Positions 200 through 10,054 of a stretch of 11,942 nt of DNA are shown here, one piece after another; the first letter of the stretch is position 1; every line of letters starts with the position of its first letter. Made by a program: the position numbers and the translations under genes. Under the pieces are notes generated by a model. The model saw nothing but the letters and a program-made list of their open reading frames with translations, was not told the origin of the DNA and ran no database searches. Origin of the DNA: a virus (taxonomy: Duplodnaviria; Heunggongvirae; Uroviricota; Caudoviricetes); the IMG/VR virus record IMGVR_UViG_2529292735_000009, positions 1-11,942 of that record; one strand, given 5' to 3'.

Positions 200-1385
200 A
201 TGAGTGAAACTCGTTTTCATGGTGCCCGTGTTACGGAAAATACCGACCTGGTAACAGCGATTAACGATGTTGATTCCAGCGTTATCGGTATCGTGGCAAC
301 GGCGGATGATGCGGACGCGAAGCTGTTCCCGCTGAACAAGCCCACACTGCTGACCCGCGTCAATGACGTGCTGGGAAAATGCGGGACAACGGGGACGCTT
401 TATCGTGCGCTTAAGGCCATCGCAGACCAGGTGAGCACAAAAGGTGATCGTCGTTCGCGTGGCTGAACACAAAGAAGAAGACGGTAAGACGCAGGATCAA
501 CTGGTTATCGGTGGTTCTGAGGATGACGGCAGCTATACGGGGATGTATGCGCTGCTTGTTGCAGAGCAGGATGAAAGCATCGGATACCGTCCGCGTATTC
601 TGGCCGCGCCGGAGCTGGACACGGAGGCGGTGACAAAATCCCTGTGCGTGATTGCGGGTAAACTGCGCGCGTTTGTGTATGCCACATGTCATGGTTGTAA
701 CACGATGGCTGAGGCGATTACCTACCGCCAGAAATTCAACGAACGTGAGGTGATGCTCTTATGGCCTGACTTCATAGCCTACAACCCGAAAAGTGGCAAA
801 AACGAAACGTTCCCCGCGCCTGCTTATGCGTGCGGCCTTCGTGCGTACATTGACCATGAGCAGGGCTGGCACAAATCGCTGTCCAACGTTCCGGTTAAAA
901 ATGTGCTGGGAATGTCCAGGCATGTGTTCTGGTCGTTGCAGGCCGAAGACAGCGATGCCAACAGCCTCAACAACAAAGAAATCACGACCATTATTCGTCG
1001 CAACGGGTTCCGCTTCTGGGGCAACCGCACACCGGAAACGAACGCCTACATCTTTGAGGTGTATACCCGAACCGCACAGGTGCTGGCTGATTCAATTGCG
1101 GAAGCGCAGTTTGAAACCATCGACAGTCCACTGACGCCTGCGAACGTGAAGGATGTTATCAGTGCCATCAGGGCAAAACTGGATTCACTGGTGACTGCCG
1201 GGAAACTGATTGGTGCGGAGTGCTGGTATGACGTGGTGGATAACGGCACCACGAATTTACGTCAGGGACGTGTGCGTATTCGCTACAAATATACGCCCGT
1301 TCCGCCACTGGAAGACATGGAGCTTTACCAGACGTTTACTGATGAATACTTTGAACCCGCATTTGCGGTGCTGGGAGGTGCCTGA
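200..1385 (+). CDS. FI: Contractile tail sheath protein (P2 gpFI-like), reading frame interrupted by one frameshift near 438-444
   Basis: ORF 200..466 (88 aa) plus ORF 444..1385 (313 aa) in a different frame together read colinearly with remembered P2 FI (e.g. FPLNKP, KLRAFVYA, IIRRNGFRFWGNRT, YTPVPPLE). Combined span 1186 nt; removing one base at AAAAGG 438-444 restores a ~394 aa protein. RBS AAGGGG 8 nt before ATG 200. Confidence 0.9.
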
Positions 1386-1898
1386 TGGCTGTGCCAAAAC
1401 ATCTTCGCTTTTTTACGTCTGTTTGTGGATGGTGAAAACGAAGTGGGTAAGGTGACGTCCGTCTCTCTGCCTAAGCTGACGCGCAAAACCGACAGCTACC
1501 GGGGTGGTGGCATGATGGGTGCGGTAAGTATTGATCTCGGTCTGGACGACTCCGCGCTTGATGCGAGCTTTGCATGGGGGGGGGCTGTTCGTGAGCTGTT
1601 CCTTAAGTATGGCGGCACGATTGACGGCACGCTGCTGCGTTTTGCGGGTGAATACTACACCGATGCAGAAAGCGACCTGTATGAAGTCGAAATGCGCGGA
1701 CGTGTGACGGAAATTGATATGGGGGAAGCCAAACAGGGCGAAGCCACATCACACTCTTACGCCATTAAAAACACCTACTACAAGCTGAGCGTTAACGATC
1801 GCCCGTTGTGGGAGATTGACCTGCTGAACTTCATTTACCGGAAGGACGGCAAGGACATTGTGCCCGATCGCATCCGTTCCGCGCTTGGGCTTGGCTGA
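1385..1898 (+). CDS. FII: Tail tube protein (P2 gpFII-like), frameshifted at T6 homopolymer 1409-1414
   Basis: ATG 1385 overlaps the sheath stop (cTGATGg). Frame from 1385 reads MAVPKHLRFF then stops at 1433-1435; frame of ORF 1425..1898 continues ...LFVDGENEVGKVTSVSLPKLTRKTDSYRGGGMMG, matching P2 FII (MAMPRKLKLMNVFLNG...TLPKLTRK...YRGAGMNG). Shortening T6 to T5 gives a colinear ~170 aa protein. Confidence 0.88.
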
Positions 1899-1952: not shown

Positions 1953-2318
1953 ATGAAAGAGACGAAAAACATCGATACCGAAAACACGGTAGTTGCTGAC
2001 ACTGTGAAAGAAACCAGTGAGCGTGGCGTAAAACTTACCCAACCAATTGAGCGAGGCGGCGAAAAAATCACGTATGTGGAGATCACCAGGGCTATTGAGC
2101 AGGCTGGATCTCTGCGAGATTTTGTCGCTGTCTGATGTGCTGAATCTGAAAGCGGAATCCATGTTTACGCTGCTGTCACGCGTGACATCACCGCGACTGG
2201 ATGAAGTGACGATCAAAAAATGGCATCCCGTGACTTTATTCAGTTATGTGTGGTTGCCGTAAATTTTTTGAGCGGTGCGGACTCTGGCGGGAAGAACGAA
2301 CAGGCGACGGAAGCCTGA
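1953..2318 (+). CDS. E: Tail assembly chaperone (P2 gpE-like, lambda G analogue); two compensating indels (T4 at 2120-2123 and A6 at 2215-2220)
   Basis: ATG 1953 follows RBS AAGGAG (1940-1945). Reading passes frame 3 (1953..~2120), frame 1 (LSLSDVLNLKAESMFTLLSRVTSPRLDEVTIKK), then frame 3 again (MASRDFIQLCVVAVNFLSGADSGGKNEQATEA, stop 2316-2318). Pattern matches gpE family as I remember it (...LRG.NLSDLL...LLPR.T.P.L...VVGFL). Confidence 0.75.
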
Positions 2319-2482: not shown

Positions 2483-5277
2483 TATCCGGGTCGCTTTCAG
2501 CGCCGTTGACAGGCTGACCCGGCCTGCCGAAAACGCCCGCCGCCTGATGGGGCAGTTTGGTGACTCCATCCAGCGAACGCAGGGGGCGATCAAAAATCTC
2601 GAGCGTCAGGCGCGATCATTTGAGCGCGCCCGTGACGCTGTCAGTAAAGCGGATGCGGGCATCGTGAAAGCACGACGCCAGCTTAACGCCCTTAATCAGT
2701 TACAACGCACGGGTACAGTGCTCAGACGAAAAACAACAAAAGCTGATGCAGCAGTTAAGCACCCGGCTTGAACGCCTGAATGAATCGCGCACACGGGAAA
2801 TTCAGAAAATGCGGGAGCTTGGCGGAGAGCTGAAACGCCACGGCATTTCCCTGACAGGCAGCGATAACACCATCCAGCAGGCCATCAGACGCACCGAACA
2901 ATACAACAACCAGCTTGAACGCGAACGGCAGGCGCTTGCGCGTGTAACGCGGGCGCGTGAGCGGTATTCGCGCGCGCAGGAAACTGCGGGAAAACTGAAA
3001 ACAGGTGGTGCGCTGGCAATTGGTGCGGCAGCGGCTGGCGGCTATGCTGCCGGGCGTTTTTTGCAGCCTGCGATCGGGTTCGGGAAAGAGATGTCCCGCG
3101 TTCAGGCACTGACGCGAATCGACAAAAACAGCCCGCAGTTTAAGGCGCTGCGTGAGCAGGCATTAAAACTTGGCTCTGAAACACAGTTTACTGCGAGTGA
3201 TGCCGCCAGTGGGCAGAGCTTTCTGGCAATGGCTGGTTTTACTCCGCAGGCCATTCAGGCCGCATTGCCCGGTGTTCTTAATATGGCGCTGGCAGGTGGC
3301 GTCGAACTCGGCGAGACGGCTGATATAGGCTCCAATATCCTCACACAGTTCAACCTGACAGCCGATCAAATGGACCGGGTTGGCGATACGCTGACAGCAG
3401 CATTCACCCGGACCAATACTGATTTACGCGCGCTGGGCGAAACCATGAAGTATACCGGTCCGGTTGCCGCAAAACTTGGTATCAGTCTTGAAGAAGCGGC
3501 AGCCATGGCCGGGATGCTTGCCAATAATGGTCTTCGTGGAAGCGATGCTGGTACGGCCATGCGCGCAAGTCTGTCCCGCCTTGCATCACCGCCAAAAGCT
3601 GCGGCTGATGCGCTGAAAGAGCTGGGGGTGTCAGTTGCTGACGCCAGAGGCAAAATGCGCCCGATGGAGGATGTGCTGCTTGATCTCTATAAGGCGACAC
3701 AAAAATACGGACAGGTGGACCAGGTTTCCTTCTTCAAGGACATCGCCGGAGAAGAGGCGTTCGTTGGTTTGCAGACGCTTGTTGCGGCGGCTGGTTCAGG
3801 AGAGCTGCAAAAACTGACCAGAGAATTGCAGGGGGCAAGGGGAGAGGCCGATCGCGTCGCAAAAGTAATGGCCGATAATCTTGATGGGGACTTGAAAAAT
3901 CTCGACAGCGCATGGGAAGGTCTTCGTATTCGCATCAGTGATCTGGTTGACGGTCCGCTGCGTTCTGTCACGCAGTGGCTCACGCGGGTGCTTGAAAAAA
4001 TCACCTCGCTGGCGCAGGCCCATCCGGTGCTGACGCGCCAGCTACTGATAGCAGGCGGTGCGTTGCTGGCAATGACTGCAACGATTGGCTCGTTGTCGCT
4101 GGTTATTGGGGTGCTTTACGGGAAGTTGGCCACCCTGCGTCTTGGTTTTGACATTCTTACCCGGTCAATGAATGTCGTCAGGGTGTTGCCTGCGCTGTGG
4201 GGAATGGTGACGGGATCCGTTTCTTTACTGGGAGGCGCTATTGGGGCGCTGTTCAGTCCGGTTGGTCTTATCGTGGCTGCGCTTGCCGGAGCTGCCGTTC
4301 TTATCTGGAAATACTGGGATCCCATCAGGGCATTTTTTGCCGGGGTGTTCAGCGGGATTATGGAAAGGCTGACCCCGTTGCGCGAAACCTTTGAACGGTT
4401 TGGTCCTGTTTTTGACGCAATCGGAAGCGGGATAAGCCAGGTGTTTAACTGGTTTAAATCGCTGCTGTCACCGATGGAGTCCAGCAAGGAAACGCTGGAT
4501 AAATGTACCAGTGCTGGCGAGATATTCGGTAACGTTCTTGGCGGTGCGTTACAACTTGTTCTGACACCTGCAAAAATGTTGCTGGATACGCTGGCGTGGA
4601 TACTTGAAAAGCTCGGTGTGCTTCCGGATGAAGCGGAAAGGGCGCGCAAAAAAATCGAAGACGCACAGCGTGCGGCCATTCTTCAGGACAAGGTTGCCTT
4701 GCTTCAGGGGGACCTGGCGAAAATCAATCCGCCGAAGCCTGTGGAAAATGGCAATGGCACCGGAGGTGATAAACCCAAAGACAACAAACCGCTCACAGAC
4801 AGCAATACCGGTACGCTACGCAGACTCAGCAAAATTGCTGATAACACAGGTAAGCTGGTTGATGAGACGAAAAAACGCATTGGCCCCGGCGATATTGTCT
4901 TTAAGAACCTGCCCCGCGCACTTGCTGTTCGTGGGGAGTGGCAGGAGCGGAAGATTGCGCAGGTCAGTAAGCCTGCCCCCGCAATTAATATCACACCCGT
5001 GGTTCCGGCTCCGCTGCCTCCGGCGCTGGTCCCTGTTGTTGCGACCAGCTCCCGCCCGGTGGCGGAGGCCATACGATCGCCAGTGGCATCAGTTCCTGCA
5101 ACTTCCCGTAACCGGGAGCCTGTTGCCTCCGGATTTGGCGGTGAAATTCATGTTCATCTGCATAACGTTGTTACACAGAATCCCCGCGAACTGGCGAAAC
5201 TGGTCGGTGAAATGGTCAGGGCAGAAATGGAACGGCGCGCCCGTGCCAGGCGTGGCAGTTTTTACGATAAAGATTGA
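2469..5277 (+). CDS. T: Tail tape measure protein (P2 gpT-like), frameshifted once between 2668 and 2771
   Basis: ATG 2469 with RBS GGAG 8 nt upstream. N-terminal ~85 codons are in the frame of ORF 2433..2771, then the 843-aa ORF 2746..5277 continues in the +1 frame (open from 2668). Coiled-coil-like N-terminus, central tape-measure core (GSDAGTAMRASLSRLASPPKAA...), hydrophobic Gly/Ala-rich segments and Pro-rich C-terminus. Candidate homopolymers for the shift: A5 2729-2733, A4 2738-2741. Confidence 0.9.
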
Positions 5278-5289
5278 GGAGTCATGGCC

Positions 5290-5778
5290 ATGATGATGAT
5301 CTACGGCATGTTTGTTTTTGAGCTGCGCACGTTGCCGCATCAGCAGTTACAGCAAAACAAAAGCTGGCGACATGTGAAAAATGAACGCGTTAACCGTTCA
5401 GCAAGCTGGCAGTATATCGGTGCAGGTGATGATCGCATCGTTCTTTCTGGTGTTCTTTATCCTGAGATTACTGGTGGCGAAGTGTCGCTGTCGTTGTTGA
5501 CCACGCAGGCATATACAGGACGTCCTTGGCCTTTGATTGATGGCGTCGGGCAGATTTACGGCATGTATGTCCTGACCGGAACGAATACGACCCGCTCCGA
5601 GTTTGATCGCTACGGTAAGGCGAAAAAGATAGAATTTTCACTGACTCTTGAACGCTGTGATGAGGATTTGCGGGAGCGCCTGCAATCCTCATCGTTCAGC
5701 GATATGCTGTCCGGCTTCAAAGATAAGGTGACATCATCCCTTAATAGCGCGGCCAGCTCAGTTAAGGGGCTGCTCTGA
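5290..5778 (+). CDS. U: Tail protein U (P2 gpU-like)
   Basis: ORF 5284..5778; starts MAMMMIYGMFVFELRTLPHQQLQ..., like P2 gpU (MMMVLGLFVFML...). GAGGAG at 5276-5281 is only 2 nt from ATG 5284, so ATG 5290 or 5293 is the more likely start. Confidence 0.85.
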   Translation: MMMIYGMFVFELRTLPHQQLQQNKSWRHVKNERVNRSASWQYIGAGDDRIVLSGVLYPEITGGEVSLSLLTTQAYTGRPWPLIDGVGQIYGMYVLTGTNTTRSEFDRYGKAKKIEFSLTLERCDEDLRERLQSSSFSDMLSGFKDKVTSSLNSAASSVKGLL

Positions 5779-5854
5779 TTTAACGTATGTCGCCAATTTC
5801 CTGATGAAGGTGACTGGCGACTTGCTGTTGTATGTCCTTCTCAGAAAATTGTTT

Positions 5855-5883
5855 TTGAATAACAAATAACAGGATTTTATAAT
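5855..5883 (+). promoter_or_regulatory. Near-consensus sigma70 promoter: -35 TTGAAT (5855-5860), 17-bp spacer, -10 TATAAT (5878-5883)
   Basis: Read directly from sequence. Sits ~50 nt upstream of the acetyltransferase RBS, inside the AT-rich island. Confidence 0.5.
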
Positions 5884-5934
5884 CTCTTAACCTTATAACA
5901 TGTGTGGTCTGAAATAATAATTAAGGAGATTATC

Positions 5935-6507
5935 GTGCTATCTTACTTAATGGCAATTCACTTTGTTTTATTTGGAAACTCTACTAATTTAAAAGACTTC
6001 TGGAAACATGAAGTAATTCGGCGGAAACGTATGGATATCTGGAGGCTTTTAAGAGAGAAAAAGCAGCGTAACCGGAATTTCCTTTTCTGGTGGCGGTTGG
6101 CTAACGAAATGTATATTAATGGTAATAAATTACATAAGAAAGCAGCCAAAAAATTAAACAGTAAAATAATTAACAAGTTTGGTTGTGAAATAGGATTGGG
6201 CGCAAATATTGGAAAAGGGTTGACAATTCCCCATCATGCTGGAATTGTTGTTCATTTTGCTGTTGATGCGGGTGAAAATCTGGTATTACGACAGAATACT
6301 ACCATTGGACAGATAGATGGTGATATGCCTGGTTCAAGAGTAAAAATTGGTAGTAACGTTGATATCGGAGCTAATTGTTGCATCATTGGATTATCACGTA
6401 AAATTGGGGATAATGTAAAAATAGGTGCAATGTCTTTTATAAATAAAGATATACCATCAAACTGCACATATATAACTAAAAAGAGTGGTGTTGTATTGTA
6501 TAAATAG
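5935..6507 (+). CDS. Hexapeptide-repeat (left-handed beta-helix) acetyltransferase, serine-acetyltransferase/WcaB/LacA-like; probable prophage moron
   Basis: ORF 5902..6507. RBS AAGGAG 5923-5928, then GTG 5935 at 6-nt spacing (alternative starts GTG 5902, ATG 5950). Motifs typical of the CysE-like acyltransferase fold: FWWRLANEMYINGNKLHKKAAKKLNSKI, GCEIGLGANIGKGLTIPHHAGIVV, tandem [LIV]G hexapeptide repeats, C-terminal IGANCCIIG...IGAMSFINKDIPSN. G+C visibly far lower than the flanking tail genes. Confidence 0.8.
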   Translation: MLSYLMAIHFVLFGNSTNLKDFWKHEVIRRKRMDIWRLLREKKQRNRNFLFWWRLANEMYINGNKLHKKAAKKLNSKIINKFGCEIGLGANIGKGLTIPHHAGIVVHFAVDAGENLVLRQNTTIGQIDGDMPGSRVKIGSNVDIGANCCIIGLSRKIGDNVKIGAMSFINKDIPSNCTYITKKSGVVLYK

Positions 6508-6514
6508 AATACAT

Positions 6515-6555
6515 AAAGCCATCGATATTTCTGTCGATGGCTTTTTCTTTTTATT
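6515..6555. terminator. Intrinsic terminator between convergent genes: 11-bp perfect stem AAAGCCATCGA / TCGATGGCTTT, 8-nt loop, T-rich tail
   Basis: Stem 6515-6525 and 6534-6544, loop 6526-6533, then TTCTTTTTATT (6545-6555). On the minus strand the hairpin is followed by a weaker U-rich stretch, so it could also serve tfa. Confidence 0.6.
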
Positions 6556-7135
6556 GTGGGGCGACTGGCCACTCAACATCCGCTGCTACTGTTGTATCAA
6601 CACGATTCAACAATACCCGATATGTCTTCCATGCAGCCAGTAACGATGCCTCTTCCTCCGTCGCAATATCCAAATCTACGGCATCCTGAAGTGGCGCAAT
6701 ATGCTCACTGGCTACCTGCATCAGGCTGTTTTTTGTTTCTTCTGCCTCCCGTACCCGAAACAGTTTTTCTGCTTCTGCATCTTTCGCCCAGGATGTGCCG
6801 TTCCACTTCTGACACTCTCCATCCGGCGACAACCAGGTAACATTTTCCGGTAACGGACCGAGTTCAGAAATAAATAACGCGTCCCCTGATGCCACGTCAT
6901 AAACAGTTTTACCCCGATGATCTTCAACGAGATGCCACGATGCCTCATCACTGTTGAAAACAGCCACGAAGCCAGCCGGAATATCTGGCGGTGCAATATC
7001 GGTACTGTTTGCAGGCAGACCTGTATGAGGTGGAATGTATGCATCACCTTCCCCAATAAATTCATTAGTTCCGGCCAGCAGGTTATAAATTTTTATGGTC
7101 CGTGATTGTTCACTCATTCTGAAATCCATGTTCAC
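6551..7135 (-). CDS. tfa: Tail fibre assembly protein (Tfa, lambda/e14 TfaE-like chaperone)
   Basis: 194-aa ORF ([55 protein letters not shown]...), very close to E. coli prophage Tfa proteins as I remember them. GTG 7135 has no spacer after the GAGG RBS, so ATG 7129 is a likely true start. Confidence 0.88.
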
Positions 7136-7137
7136 CT

Positions 7138-7506
7138 CTACTTAATATCAGAGACAGAATATTGTTTATTGAGCGTATGGGTGGGAGTACCAATAACGAT
7201 GCTACTTCCGTGGCTATGTGCGCCAGAGGTGACATTACCTACGGGATTTTCTGGATTAATCCGGTGTATATGCGAACCAGGGCGAAAACGGTTATTAGCC
7301 TGATGTTGTATCAGTACATCATCAGCCTGATGTTCAGGGTTAATACAGACTTGCCCGGAACGTGAGCAACACGTCCGATAATCGCCGCATCCAATATATT
7401 TAGTATCCGCATAACGGCAAACAGAATTACCCGGACAGTATGCATATGTGCCAAATACTGCCGACTGGCGAGATTGTGCGTATTCCCAGTTAATTGATTC
7501 TGTTTT
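7138..7506 (-). other. 122-codon open frame without start codon, Cys/His-rich; probable C-terminal continuation of the macro-domain protein after a homopolymer indel, or relic of an older tail-fibre 3' end
   Basis: The frame opens exactly at the A6 run (plus-strand T6 7503-7508) where the macro domain ends, and stops at TAG 7140-7138, 2 nt before the tfa start. Translation: [60 protein letters not shown]...[33 protein letters not shown]. Confidence 0.4.
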
Positions 7507-8039
7507 TTATTAAAGTTATCCCATGCCTGCTTCATCTGTCGTGCAACACTTTCAAACGGCACCTGACCACATCCGGCCCCCATTGCAGGGAATACCACTG
7601 TTTTTATTTTCATGTCTGTCGTTGCGTTTTTATTGTGCTGAAAGATGGCAAGCAGAGCGGCCCAGGTTGCGTTATATACAGCGTCTGTTCCGTCAATTGT
7701 CAACGGAACACGCATTGTTGGCGCATGTACCAGCCAGGGGTGATGATTATGCCCCGTTTCAATGACAAATGCAGAACCTACAGGCTGTTCGCCGAGATAT
7801 TCACGAAGAATATGATTCTGAACGCGGGACTGTAACTGAGTACCGAAGAATGCGGTAATGGCGGCATCAACGCCACCATCCATCAGGCCGAAACTATTTG
7901 CCGCACTTACCATGCAGTCAAATTCTCTGATTGTTTCAAATGGCTTTCCGACAATATTCACACTATCTGCATTTGCAAATATCCGTTTAAATGCTTCAGC
8001 CATTTCTGTTACTGGTGCAGAAAGAATGAGCGTAATCAT
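7311..8039 (-). CDS. Macro-domain protein (ADP-ribose binding / ADP-ribosyl hydrolase fold), as read in the given frame; probably longer (see next feature)
   Basis: ATG 8039-8037 overlaps the H stop (ATGA). Macro signatures: [28 protein letters not shown] (compare VNAAN..L..GGGV..AI) and [26 protein letters not shown] (compare FPAIS.G.YG.P). G+C lower than the neighbouring tail genes. Confidence 0.75.
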
Positions 8040-10054
8040 GCAAGCCTCACAATATAGTTAAATGCGATGTTTTTTACGGTGTTTTCTGCGTTACCCGTAG
8101 CGTTAACGGTGATGGTATGCCCGTGTGAACCTATCGCAACGGAGTGTGTGTGTGCACCAATTCCTACCGTATGAGTGTGTGCGCCAATATTTACTGTGTG
8201 AGAGTGCCCCCCTGCGTTACTTGTTTTTCCAGTGCCAAGCCCTGAGTTATAACCAGCCGAAACACCATTACCAGCACCAGTGTTGCCAACAGGAATATTG
8301 TGTGAATGATCCCCGGCGCTATTCGTGGTTTTAGTGCCATGGTTAAATGAACTGGACGTCTTGGTACCGTAATCAAACGACGATGTGGTTTTCGTCCCCA
8401 AATCCGTACTGGATGCACTGGCGCTGTGGGTGTGCGATTTAATGCCGTCCTGTTCCTGAGACAATACTGCACGACCACTGGCGGGCTTGCCCTTAATCGT
8501 CCAGCTACGCATATCAGGGATCACGCCTGACGGATAAGCGGCTGCAAGTTTCGGGTATGCAGATTTGTCAAAAGTCTGCCCCTGCATCAGGGCATAACCA
8601 GACGGAACGGTATCTGATGGCCAAGGGATCGGTGCGCCAACCGGATAAAGTTCATGAGGCGAAATATACAGCGAATAAACAGAACCGTCCGTTAATCCTT
8701 CCGGCTTATTAGCAGAATATGCTGGTGAAGTATGAATCGTTACGCTGGCGTTACTGGTATAATCCCATTGAATATTTACACCAGTCGCATAATTTCCGAT
8801 TGCAACGTAAATATCGTAAGTATCACCAGATGTATTGACCCAGGCAAAATTTGTAAACCCTGCCGATGTGCGCTGCCATAAAGCACCAGTAATCCCCTTC
8901 GGATTACCATTACCTGCACGCAAAACAAGTTCAGATATACCTGCCTGTTGAGGTGAGCCGACGTTATATCCAGCCCCACCAATCAACGTAATTGAAACAA
9001 CAGAACTCGCCTGCGGCATGGTTACCGTTGCTAATTTGAACCAACCAGCACCACTGCTGAATGACATAGTTGTTGAGTTAAGCGTACCAATATCTTTCGG
9101 TGTCAGTGTTATATCCGCTGAAAGCGCCTTACCATTCACCTTACGGGCAGAAGGTACCCGACCATTCGCATTGTCATTAGCTGCTTTCACTGCTTTCGAT
9201 GTCGCAGCAAGCGTTTCAGATGTGCTGTTAGTCGCGCTGCTTAGCTGGACAATCCCTTTTTGTGCTGTCGTAGCGTCCTGAGCGGTATATTTCCCGTTAG
9301 CAAGGTCATATGCTGCCTTTACCGCCATTGGTGTTGCCGCCAGCGTTTCAGAATCGCTGTTGGTGGCGCTACTGAGCTGGACAAGGCCTTTTCGCGCTGT
9401 GGTGGCATCCTGCGCAGTATATTTCCCGTTAGCAAGATCATACGCGGCCTTTACTGCTTTCGGCGTTGCAGCCTGCGTTTCAGACACGCTGGTAGTGTCG
9501 CTACTGAGTTGAACAAAGCCTTTTTGCGGTCAGCGAGGCATCCGGGGTGACGTCGTGACTGTTCATGCTCTTTCAGTTTGTCATCCACGTAATCCACTGT
9601 GGCCATCACCATGGTGTTATCCACGGTAAGCGCCACGGTGGCAGTGCTGGATACGGTCAGAATGGTGCGAAATGTTTGTGCACGACCGGACCCTTCGGCA
9701 ACGGCTGGCTTGTAACTTTCGGCAGTATTGACCCACCGCGATTAAATCGCCGTGCTCATCAAATACACCAATTTCCCGGATCCAGAATCCGCCCGTTTCA
9801 GGAGGAATAACCAGCTCCGCAATAATGCGGTTCTGATGTGTTGCGTCCAGGATGACGCGATTAACAGTGTGTCGCCACACCTCATGCACCAGACGGGTCT
9901 GCTTACTGTCTGGTGTGGGCAACGTGCCGCCACCGTCGCCCACGGCCATATGAGTCAGGCGGACAGGCTTACCATCTGGCGCGGCTGCCTGAGCTAATTT
10001 TTTGGCACCCGTATCGGTGATAAGGGTTTTAAATTTTCGTGTTGTGGTACTCAT
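8036..10054 (-). CDS. H: Tail fibre protein (P2 gpH-like N-terminus, tandem fibre repeats, gp37/Stf-like HxH C-terminus); three frameshifts at 9732-9734, 9545-9548 and 9521-9525
   Basis: ORF 9617..10054 ([28 protein letters not shown]...MAVGDGGG...HEVWRH...[10 protein letters not shown]) matches the P2 H N-terminus; ORF 9451..9636 ([28 protein letters not shown]) and ORF 8036..9487 continue it. Fragments join colinearly if one base is removed from CCC 9732-9734, GGGG 9545-9548 and TTTTT 9521-9525. C-terminus carries [32 protein letters not shown] repeats. Confidence 0.9.
9150..9530 (-). repeat. In-frame tandem repeat, ~132 nt (44 aa) period, ~2.8 copies, inside the tail fibre gene
   Basis: Protein repeats KG[FLI][36 protein letters not shown] occur three times; the DNA repeat is visible on the plus strand (tatatttcccgttagcaag[g/a]tcata... 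twice). Boundaries approximate. Confidence 0.6.

Follow-up and report, generated by a model that had tools for sequence, protein, structure and literature searches.

The three frameshifts in the tail-fibre gene of an Escherichia coli DEC14C prophage contig are most probably consensus errors

The tail-fibre gene H of a P2/P88-like prophage from Escherichia coli DEC14C is interrupted by three frameshifts in the deposited DNA. Judging from sequence comparison, these frameshifts are very probably consensus errors of a poorly supported contig, not mutations of the bacterium. The breaks almost certainly reflect neither biology nor anything novel, and the gene is an ordinary P2-type H. An earlier note on this DNA had favoured technical error, and this reading is now strongly supported: private changes in the window, that is, in the whole 11,942-nt stretch of DNA analysed, comprise 11 one-base indels and 3 substitutions, and none of these indels occurs in five near-identical assemblies.

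Results

Identity and gene layout of the contig

Exact protein matches showed that the window corresponds to contig AIHM01000003.1 over its full length of 11,942 bp; this contig belongs to GCA_000250455.2, a draft assembly of 2012, and E. coli DEC14C is the NCBI organism for its proteins. Its content is the tail module of a P2/P88-like (Peduoviridae) prophage, which is arranged as follows.

Plus strand: sheath, tube, E-type chaperone, tape measure, U and serine acetyltransferase genes
Minus strand, in this order: V (partial), W, J, I, H, macro-domain gene and tail-fibre assembly gene
8036-10054, minus strand: H, P2/P88-like tail fibre, start at 10054 and stop at 8036

One end of the contig lies within gene V and the other in the D-sheath intergenic region, and both regions are conserved among P2-like prophages. 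The module also carries cargo. A serine O-acetyltransferase-like gene (5932-6507) lies on the opposite strand after the fibre assembly chaperone, and its place is occupied in P88-type relatives by an invertible fibre segment and a DNA invertase. A second cargo gene, encoding a macro domain (7137-8039), lies between H and its assembly chaperone.

The only genuine recoding site of the window is the heptamer T_TTT_TTG at 2264-2270, the P2-type E/E+E' programmed -1 frameshift signal, which is intact and in register. It is located near the 3' end of the 121-aa E-type chaperone gene and leads into the GpE (PF06528) frame, which overlaps the start of the tape-measure gene. Two probably spurious indels lie upstream of the heptamer in the chaperone gene and leave it unaffected.

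Three extra bases in the tail-fibre gene

As deposited, H falls into three parts, with an N-terminal ORF of 145 aa (9617-10054) and a C-terminal ORF of 483 aa (8036-9487) flanking a short segment, and its minus-strand translation changes reading frame three times between 9731 and 9521. Alignment with the intact H genes of E. coli A1, E. coli SE11 and phage P88 revealed exactly three surplus bases in the window, together spanning 206 nt.

9731, minus strand: extra A (coding-strand T) in TTG[A]CCC, coding GGG[T]CAA; H codon 108; absent from 24 of 24 aligned relatives
9544-9547, minus strand: GGGG where relatives have GGG; inserted base 9547; H codon 169
9521-9525, minus strand: TTTTT where relatives have TTTT; inserted base 9525; H codon 176

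The earlier note had described three homopolymer expansions at these sites. Three extra bases are indeed present, but only two of them are expansions (T4 to T5 and G3 to G4), the third being the isolated A9731. The expansion of TTTTT at 9521-9525 is confirmed; that of the G run is real as well, although the run lies at 9544-9547 and not at 9545-9548. The third tract had been placed at CCC 9732-9734, and this assignment does not hold. At this run, 21 of the 24 relatives carry three bases, with CCT in two of them, and the remaining three, which align as TT-TCCC near 9731, are likewise one base shorter than the window. Because the CCC run is unchanged in relatives, the event at 9731 is not a homopolymer expansion. 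Deletion of A9731 gives the sequence of the relatives, whereas deletion of a C, which likewise restores the frame, introduces G108V. The last two sites, previously given as 20 nt apart, are closely spaced, with 22 nt between the inserted bases (9525 and 9547) and 18 nt separating the runs; the short third-frame segment reported between them (ASLTAK) was found as DASLTAK.

With the three bases removed, the fibre is colinear, as had been proposed, and forms a continuous protein of 671 aa that is distinguished from intact database alleles of this length by a single residue, N187T. Pfam analysis of the corrected protein identified Phage_tail_fib (PF12571, 5e-54), Phage_fiber_2 (PF03406, 5e-57, 3 repeats) and Collar (PF07484, 2e-11), all three with scores above the curated cut-offs. 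In addition to these gpH-type domains, the gene has the expected operon position, V-W-J-I-H with a Caudo_TAP chaperone. An uninterrupted frame is lacking as deposited and is present once the three bases absent from relatives are removed. The 145-aa product is recorded on one contig only, AIHM01000003.1, among 153 billion gene positions.

H also varies naturally in length, with 671 aa in the clade of the window and 715 or 719 aa in others. This variation corresponds to one 44-aa (132-nt) Phage_fiber_2 repeat unit in the region of window positions 9173-9528, that is, to the copy number of the shaft repeat.

Programmed ribosomal frameshifting was also weighed as an explanation for H and rejected, since the three sites lack a slippery heptamer, three separate shifts would be required, and the relatives are unshifted.

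The earlier note had also raised a phase-variation-like mechanism, in which replication slippage at the short tracts of H would switch expression of the fibre on and off. Two of the three H events are +1 changes in mononucleotide runs, and the A7 tract of the macro-domain gene on the same contig varies among assemblies, as such a mechanism would allow. However, the tracts of the intact alleles are only 3 and 4 nt long, and tracts at known contingency loci are much longer. The third event lies outside any run, and restoration of the frame would need three independent reversions. Moreover, the H sites show zero variation among the 24 aligned relatives, the five near-identical assemblies included, and none of the 733 complete E. 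coli genomes that hold the 281-nt H segment match it at ≥99%, the matches listed spanning 278 nt. The same type of lesion also affects five unrelated genes of the window. H thus has neither a single long hypermutable tract nor tract variation among the related strains aligned, and we consider switching of the fibre extremely improbable.

Comparison with near-identical relatives

The closest relatives were found through exact matches to the tail-fibre assembly protein and then through intact 671-aa H alleles; the J protein, which is present in 3,255 blocks, was unsuited to this purpose. Five independent assemblies are colinear with the whole window and about 99.8% identical to it (99.85% including indel columns): GCA_018310915.1, GCA_012727355.1, GCA_012596255.1, GCA_021453045.1 and the ENA metagenome assembly ERZ27310365. 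None of the 11 indels of the window is present in any of these five assemblies. Their tail genes are full length, except for the tube gene of GCA_021453045.1 (157 aa), which has its own 2-bp deletion and substitution near the gene start, at the equivalent of window 1435-1437. Among complete E. coli genomes and phage records, a search for the source or an identical copy gave a best match of 97-98%, and no match had the insertions. A second assembly of DEC14C was not found either.

The window differs from its nearest relatives at 8 substitution sites, and same-strain status is therefore not implied. Three of these substitutions are private with respect to a panel of 24 relatives; those at 776 and 1586 are synonymous, and the one at 9492 is N187T. 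The five others are alleles common to more distant lineages, and four of them (122, 131, 11857 and 11911) are found no more than about 130 nt from a contig end. Together with the conserved end regions, these substitutions suggest that the contig ends are chimeric or that DEC14C has a second, related prophage.

On this basis, the contig might be another kind of assembly artefact, namely a mosaic, or an error-rich, degenerate copy of a prophage that is present in clean form elsewhere or of a second related prophage. The matches of the four end substitutions to distant lineages are in line with this view, and so is the position of the contig ends, in gene V and the D-sheath intergenic region. In contrast, a clean copy of H from DEC14C was absent from the exact or near-exact matches, and mixing of prophages accounts for substitutions and not for one-base indels. 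We regard this origin as highly improbable; in any case, it is a variant of the technical explanation and not a true rival to it.

One-base indels across the contig

The breaks had been described for a single gene. Three of them do lie in H, but eight further one-base indels occur elsewhere in the window. Indels in several genes other than H were already evident against O157 strain 493/89, the closest complete genome (97%). The full set comprises 11 indels, all of 1 nt (8 insertions and 3 deletions), and it is the same set against each of the five near-identical assemblies. Six genes are broken: sheath, tube, E chaperone, tape measure, macro-domain gene and H. The eight indels outside H are as follows.

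439-442, plus strand: AAAA where the nearest relatives have AAA (indel at 442); sheath codon 81; 88 + 313 aa instead of 394 aa
1418, plus strand: extra T in ACG[T]CTG, off-homopolymer; tube gene broken at codon 11
After 1572, plus strand: missing T, isolated; tube codon 63
1576-1584, plus strand: G9 where the nearest relative has G8; tube codon 64
2120-2123, plus strand: TTTT where relatives have TTT (indel at 2123); 121-aa E-type chaperone broken at codon 57
2215-2220, plus strand: A6 where relatives have A7 (indel at 2220); chaperone codon 89, regaining the frame lost at 2123
2726, plus strand: extra A in CAG[A]CGA, off-homopolymer; tape measure broken at codon 86; 843 aa instead of 935 aa
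7503-7508, minus strand: T6 (coding A6) where the nearest relatives have 7; macro-domain codon 178; 242 aa instead of 300 aa

The indels at 1572 and 1576 are 4 nt apart and compensate each other. The G-rich tube stretch in which they lie (1572-1586) differs among relatives, reading GGGGGGCGC, GGGGGGTGC or GGGGGGGGC, and the private synonymous substitution at 1586 directly follows the two indels.

Spectrum and distribution of the indels

Indels make up about 9% of spontaneous mutations in E. coli mutation-accumulation data (indel to substitution about 1:10), and 25% is a generous figure for a mismatch-repair mutator. The probability that at least 11 of 14 private changes are indels is 9e-10 at the former share and 4e-5 at the latter. 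Spontaneous mutation cannot account for 11 private indels alongside 3 private substitutions.

The indels are also unevenly distributed: seven lie in 442-2726, three in 9525-9731 and one at 7508, with zero in the 4.8 kb from 2727 to 7507 (P about 0.005; sum of log gaps, 100,000 simulations). This clustering fits patches of poor read support. With respect to homopolymers, the indels affect the single run of length 8 (1/1), two of the four runs of length 7, none of the 51 runs of lengths 5-6 and 4 of the 507 runs of lengths 3-4, and the remaining 4 are off-homopolymer. Furthermore, the three isolated insertions share an X-run-X form (G[A]CCCA at 9731, and CG[T]CTG at both 1418 and 2726, in the latter case on the opposite strand), in which each inserted base is a copy of the base following the next run. 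Carry-forward would yield this pattern, although three cases make this no more than suggestive.

The marks of gene decay were sought across the window, and no stop-gain substitution, no indel longer than 1 nt, no large deletion and no IS insertion was found. Indels aside, the genes resemble a set maintained by selection, with few coding substitutions that are mostly synonymous.

These observations bear directly on genuine pseudogenisation, according to which the DEC14C prophage is defective and carries real frameshifts in H and five other tail genes. Defective P2-like prophages are common in E. coli, and the breakage of many tail genes together would be expected after loss of selection. The preference for long runs resembles replication slippage, and the A6 allele of the macro-domain gene is present elsewhere. 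However, the 11:3 ratio of private indels to substitutions is far from any known spontaneous spectrum. A decaying pseudogene accumulates many more substitutions than indels, along with nonsense codons, larger deletions and IS elements, and the window shows the reverse ratio with zero nonsense codons, multi-base deletions or IS elements. In addition, four indels are off-homopolymer, the indels are patchy instead of being spread across all dispensable genes, the truncated H product occurs on no other contig, and the five near-identical prophages are intact at 11 of 11 sites. Pseudogenisation is therefore unlikely.

If the indels were real, they would amount to a burst of +/-1 frameshifts with almost no substitutions in the prophage tail module of DEC14C or of a subpopulation, which we consider very unlikely. 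A mutational process specific to indels would then have to operate locally on prophage DNA.

The poly-A tract of the macro-domain gene

The macro-domain tract at 7503-7508 exists in two states, A7 encoding 300 aa and A6 encoding 242 aa. E. coli DEC3F was sequenced in the same project, and its copy of the prophage lies on a 188-kb contig. Over 15,081 nt of this contig, the change from A7 to A6 is the sole difference from a finished O157 genome. A6 also occurs in several further assemblies. Moreover, in a separate lineage represented by many short-read assemblies, the tract has another composition and is one base shorter overall, giving the same 242-aa frame. At least 1 of the 11 indels (A7 to A6) thus recurs in independent assemblies, in a frame used by natural alleles. 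This is evidence against a purely technical origin, and because of it, not all 11 indels need be artefacts.

The A6 indel may be genuine. Since both frames are used by natural alleles, the tract may be a real slippage hotspot that toggles between 300-aa and 242-aa C-termini, or it may be a recurrent site of homopolymer under-calling. The A6 allele was also considered as proof of systematic error, a point that it cannot decide, the same frame being natural in other lineages. GCA_039615205.1 and GCA_949813075.1 have large contigs with many split housekeeping genes near the prophage (ruvC, aspS, yebC and isochorismatase). These split genes indicate assembly-wide errors of the homopolymer type, and the A6 allele in these two assemblies is therefore weak evidence. 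The question of the macro-domain tract leaves the verdict on H unchanged.

Discussion

Probable origin of the frameshifts

Collectively, the variants in H are private to one assembly and belong to an excess of one-base indels that lies in patches across unrelated genes, as is characteristic of artefacts. Eleven spurious one-base indels would have entered the consensus in two patches (442-2726 and 9521-9731) and at 7508, most likely because these stretches were covered by few pyrosequencing-type reads or by the low-quality ends of such reads. In the bacterium itself, the fibre of the DEC14C prophage is most probably an intact protein of 671 aa, as in its near-identical relatives.

Our inference that weak read support and 454 chemistry caused the errors draws on the following background. 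In 454 Titanium data, indels are far commoner than mismatches, errors are linked to homopolymers and to read position, and carry-forward is described as an error type (PMC3116506). For its 2012 genomes, the same laboratory reported 454 Titanium reads and the Celera assembler (PMC3491183), which agrees with this cause in an indirect way. The DEC3F contig from the same project shows 0 mismatches and one homopolymer gap against the finished O157 genome over the 15,081 nt compared. Because this long contig is clean, the problem appears to be local to the short orphan contig AIHM01000003.1. The case for error in H is circumstantial, and real slippage mutations would likewise prefer long runs.

Implications

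The importance of this result lies in data hygiene and not in biology. Probably spurious truncated proteins are now public, including EHX96978.1 (a 145-aa "H protein") and EHX96977.1 (a 483-aa fibre fragment), and the split sheath, tube and tape-measure pieces from AIHM01000003.1 are likewise database entries of this kind. Taken as deposited, the contig would inflate the counts of pseudogenes or "defective prophages" for DEC14C. In genome scans, a cluster of frameshifts should be compared with the rest of its contig and with near-identical relatives before it is interpreted biologically; through this comparison, an apparent oddity of H becomes a contig-wide quality problem.

Comparison with known systems

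With homopolymer contingency loci, which vary by slipped-strand mispairing, H shares two +1 events in mononucleotide runs. In contrast to such loci, its runs measure 3-4 nt, one event lies off any run, and three lesions occur in one gene; moreover, relatives are invariant at the H sites, and other genes of the window carry the same lesions.

The likeness to consensus errors of low-coverage 454 sequencing is much closer. As in the latter, one-base indels greatly outnumber substitutions, insertions exceed deletions, and the distribution is patchy (454 properties in PMC3116506). The longest homopolymers are preferred, and some isolated inserted bases stand in a carry-forward-like context. One difference is that the indel of the window in the macro-domain A tract may represent genuine polymorphism.

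As for the gene itself, the fibre differs from the bacteriophage P2 gpH type in being split by three extra bases as deposited and in having a macro-domain gene between H and the assembly gene. The closest named phage is Xuanwuvirus P88, from which the C-terminal receptor-binding part of H differs, while the N-terminal DNA of H is about 94-97% identical to that of P88 and E. coli prophages. With the P2 gpH-type fibre, it shares the W-J-I-H order followed by the fibre assembly gene, as well as the N-terminal Phage_tail_fib domain, the Phage_fiber_2 repeats and the Collar domain.
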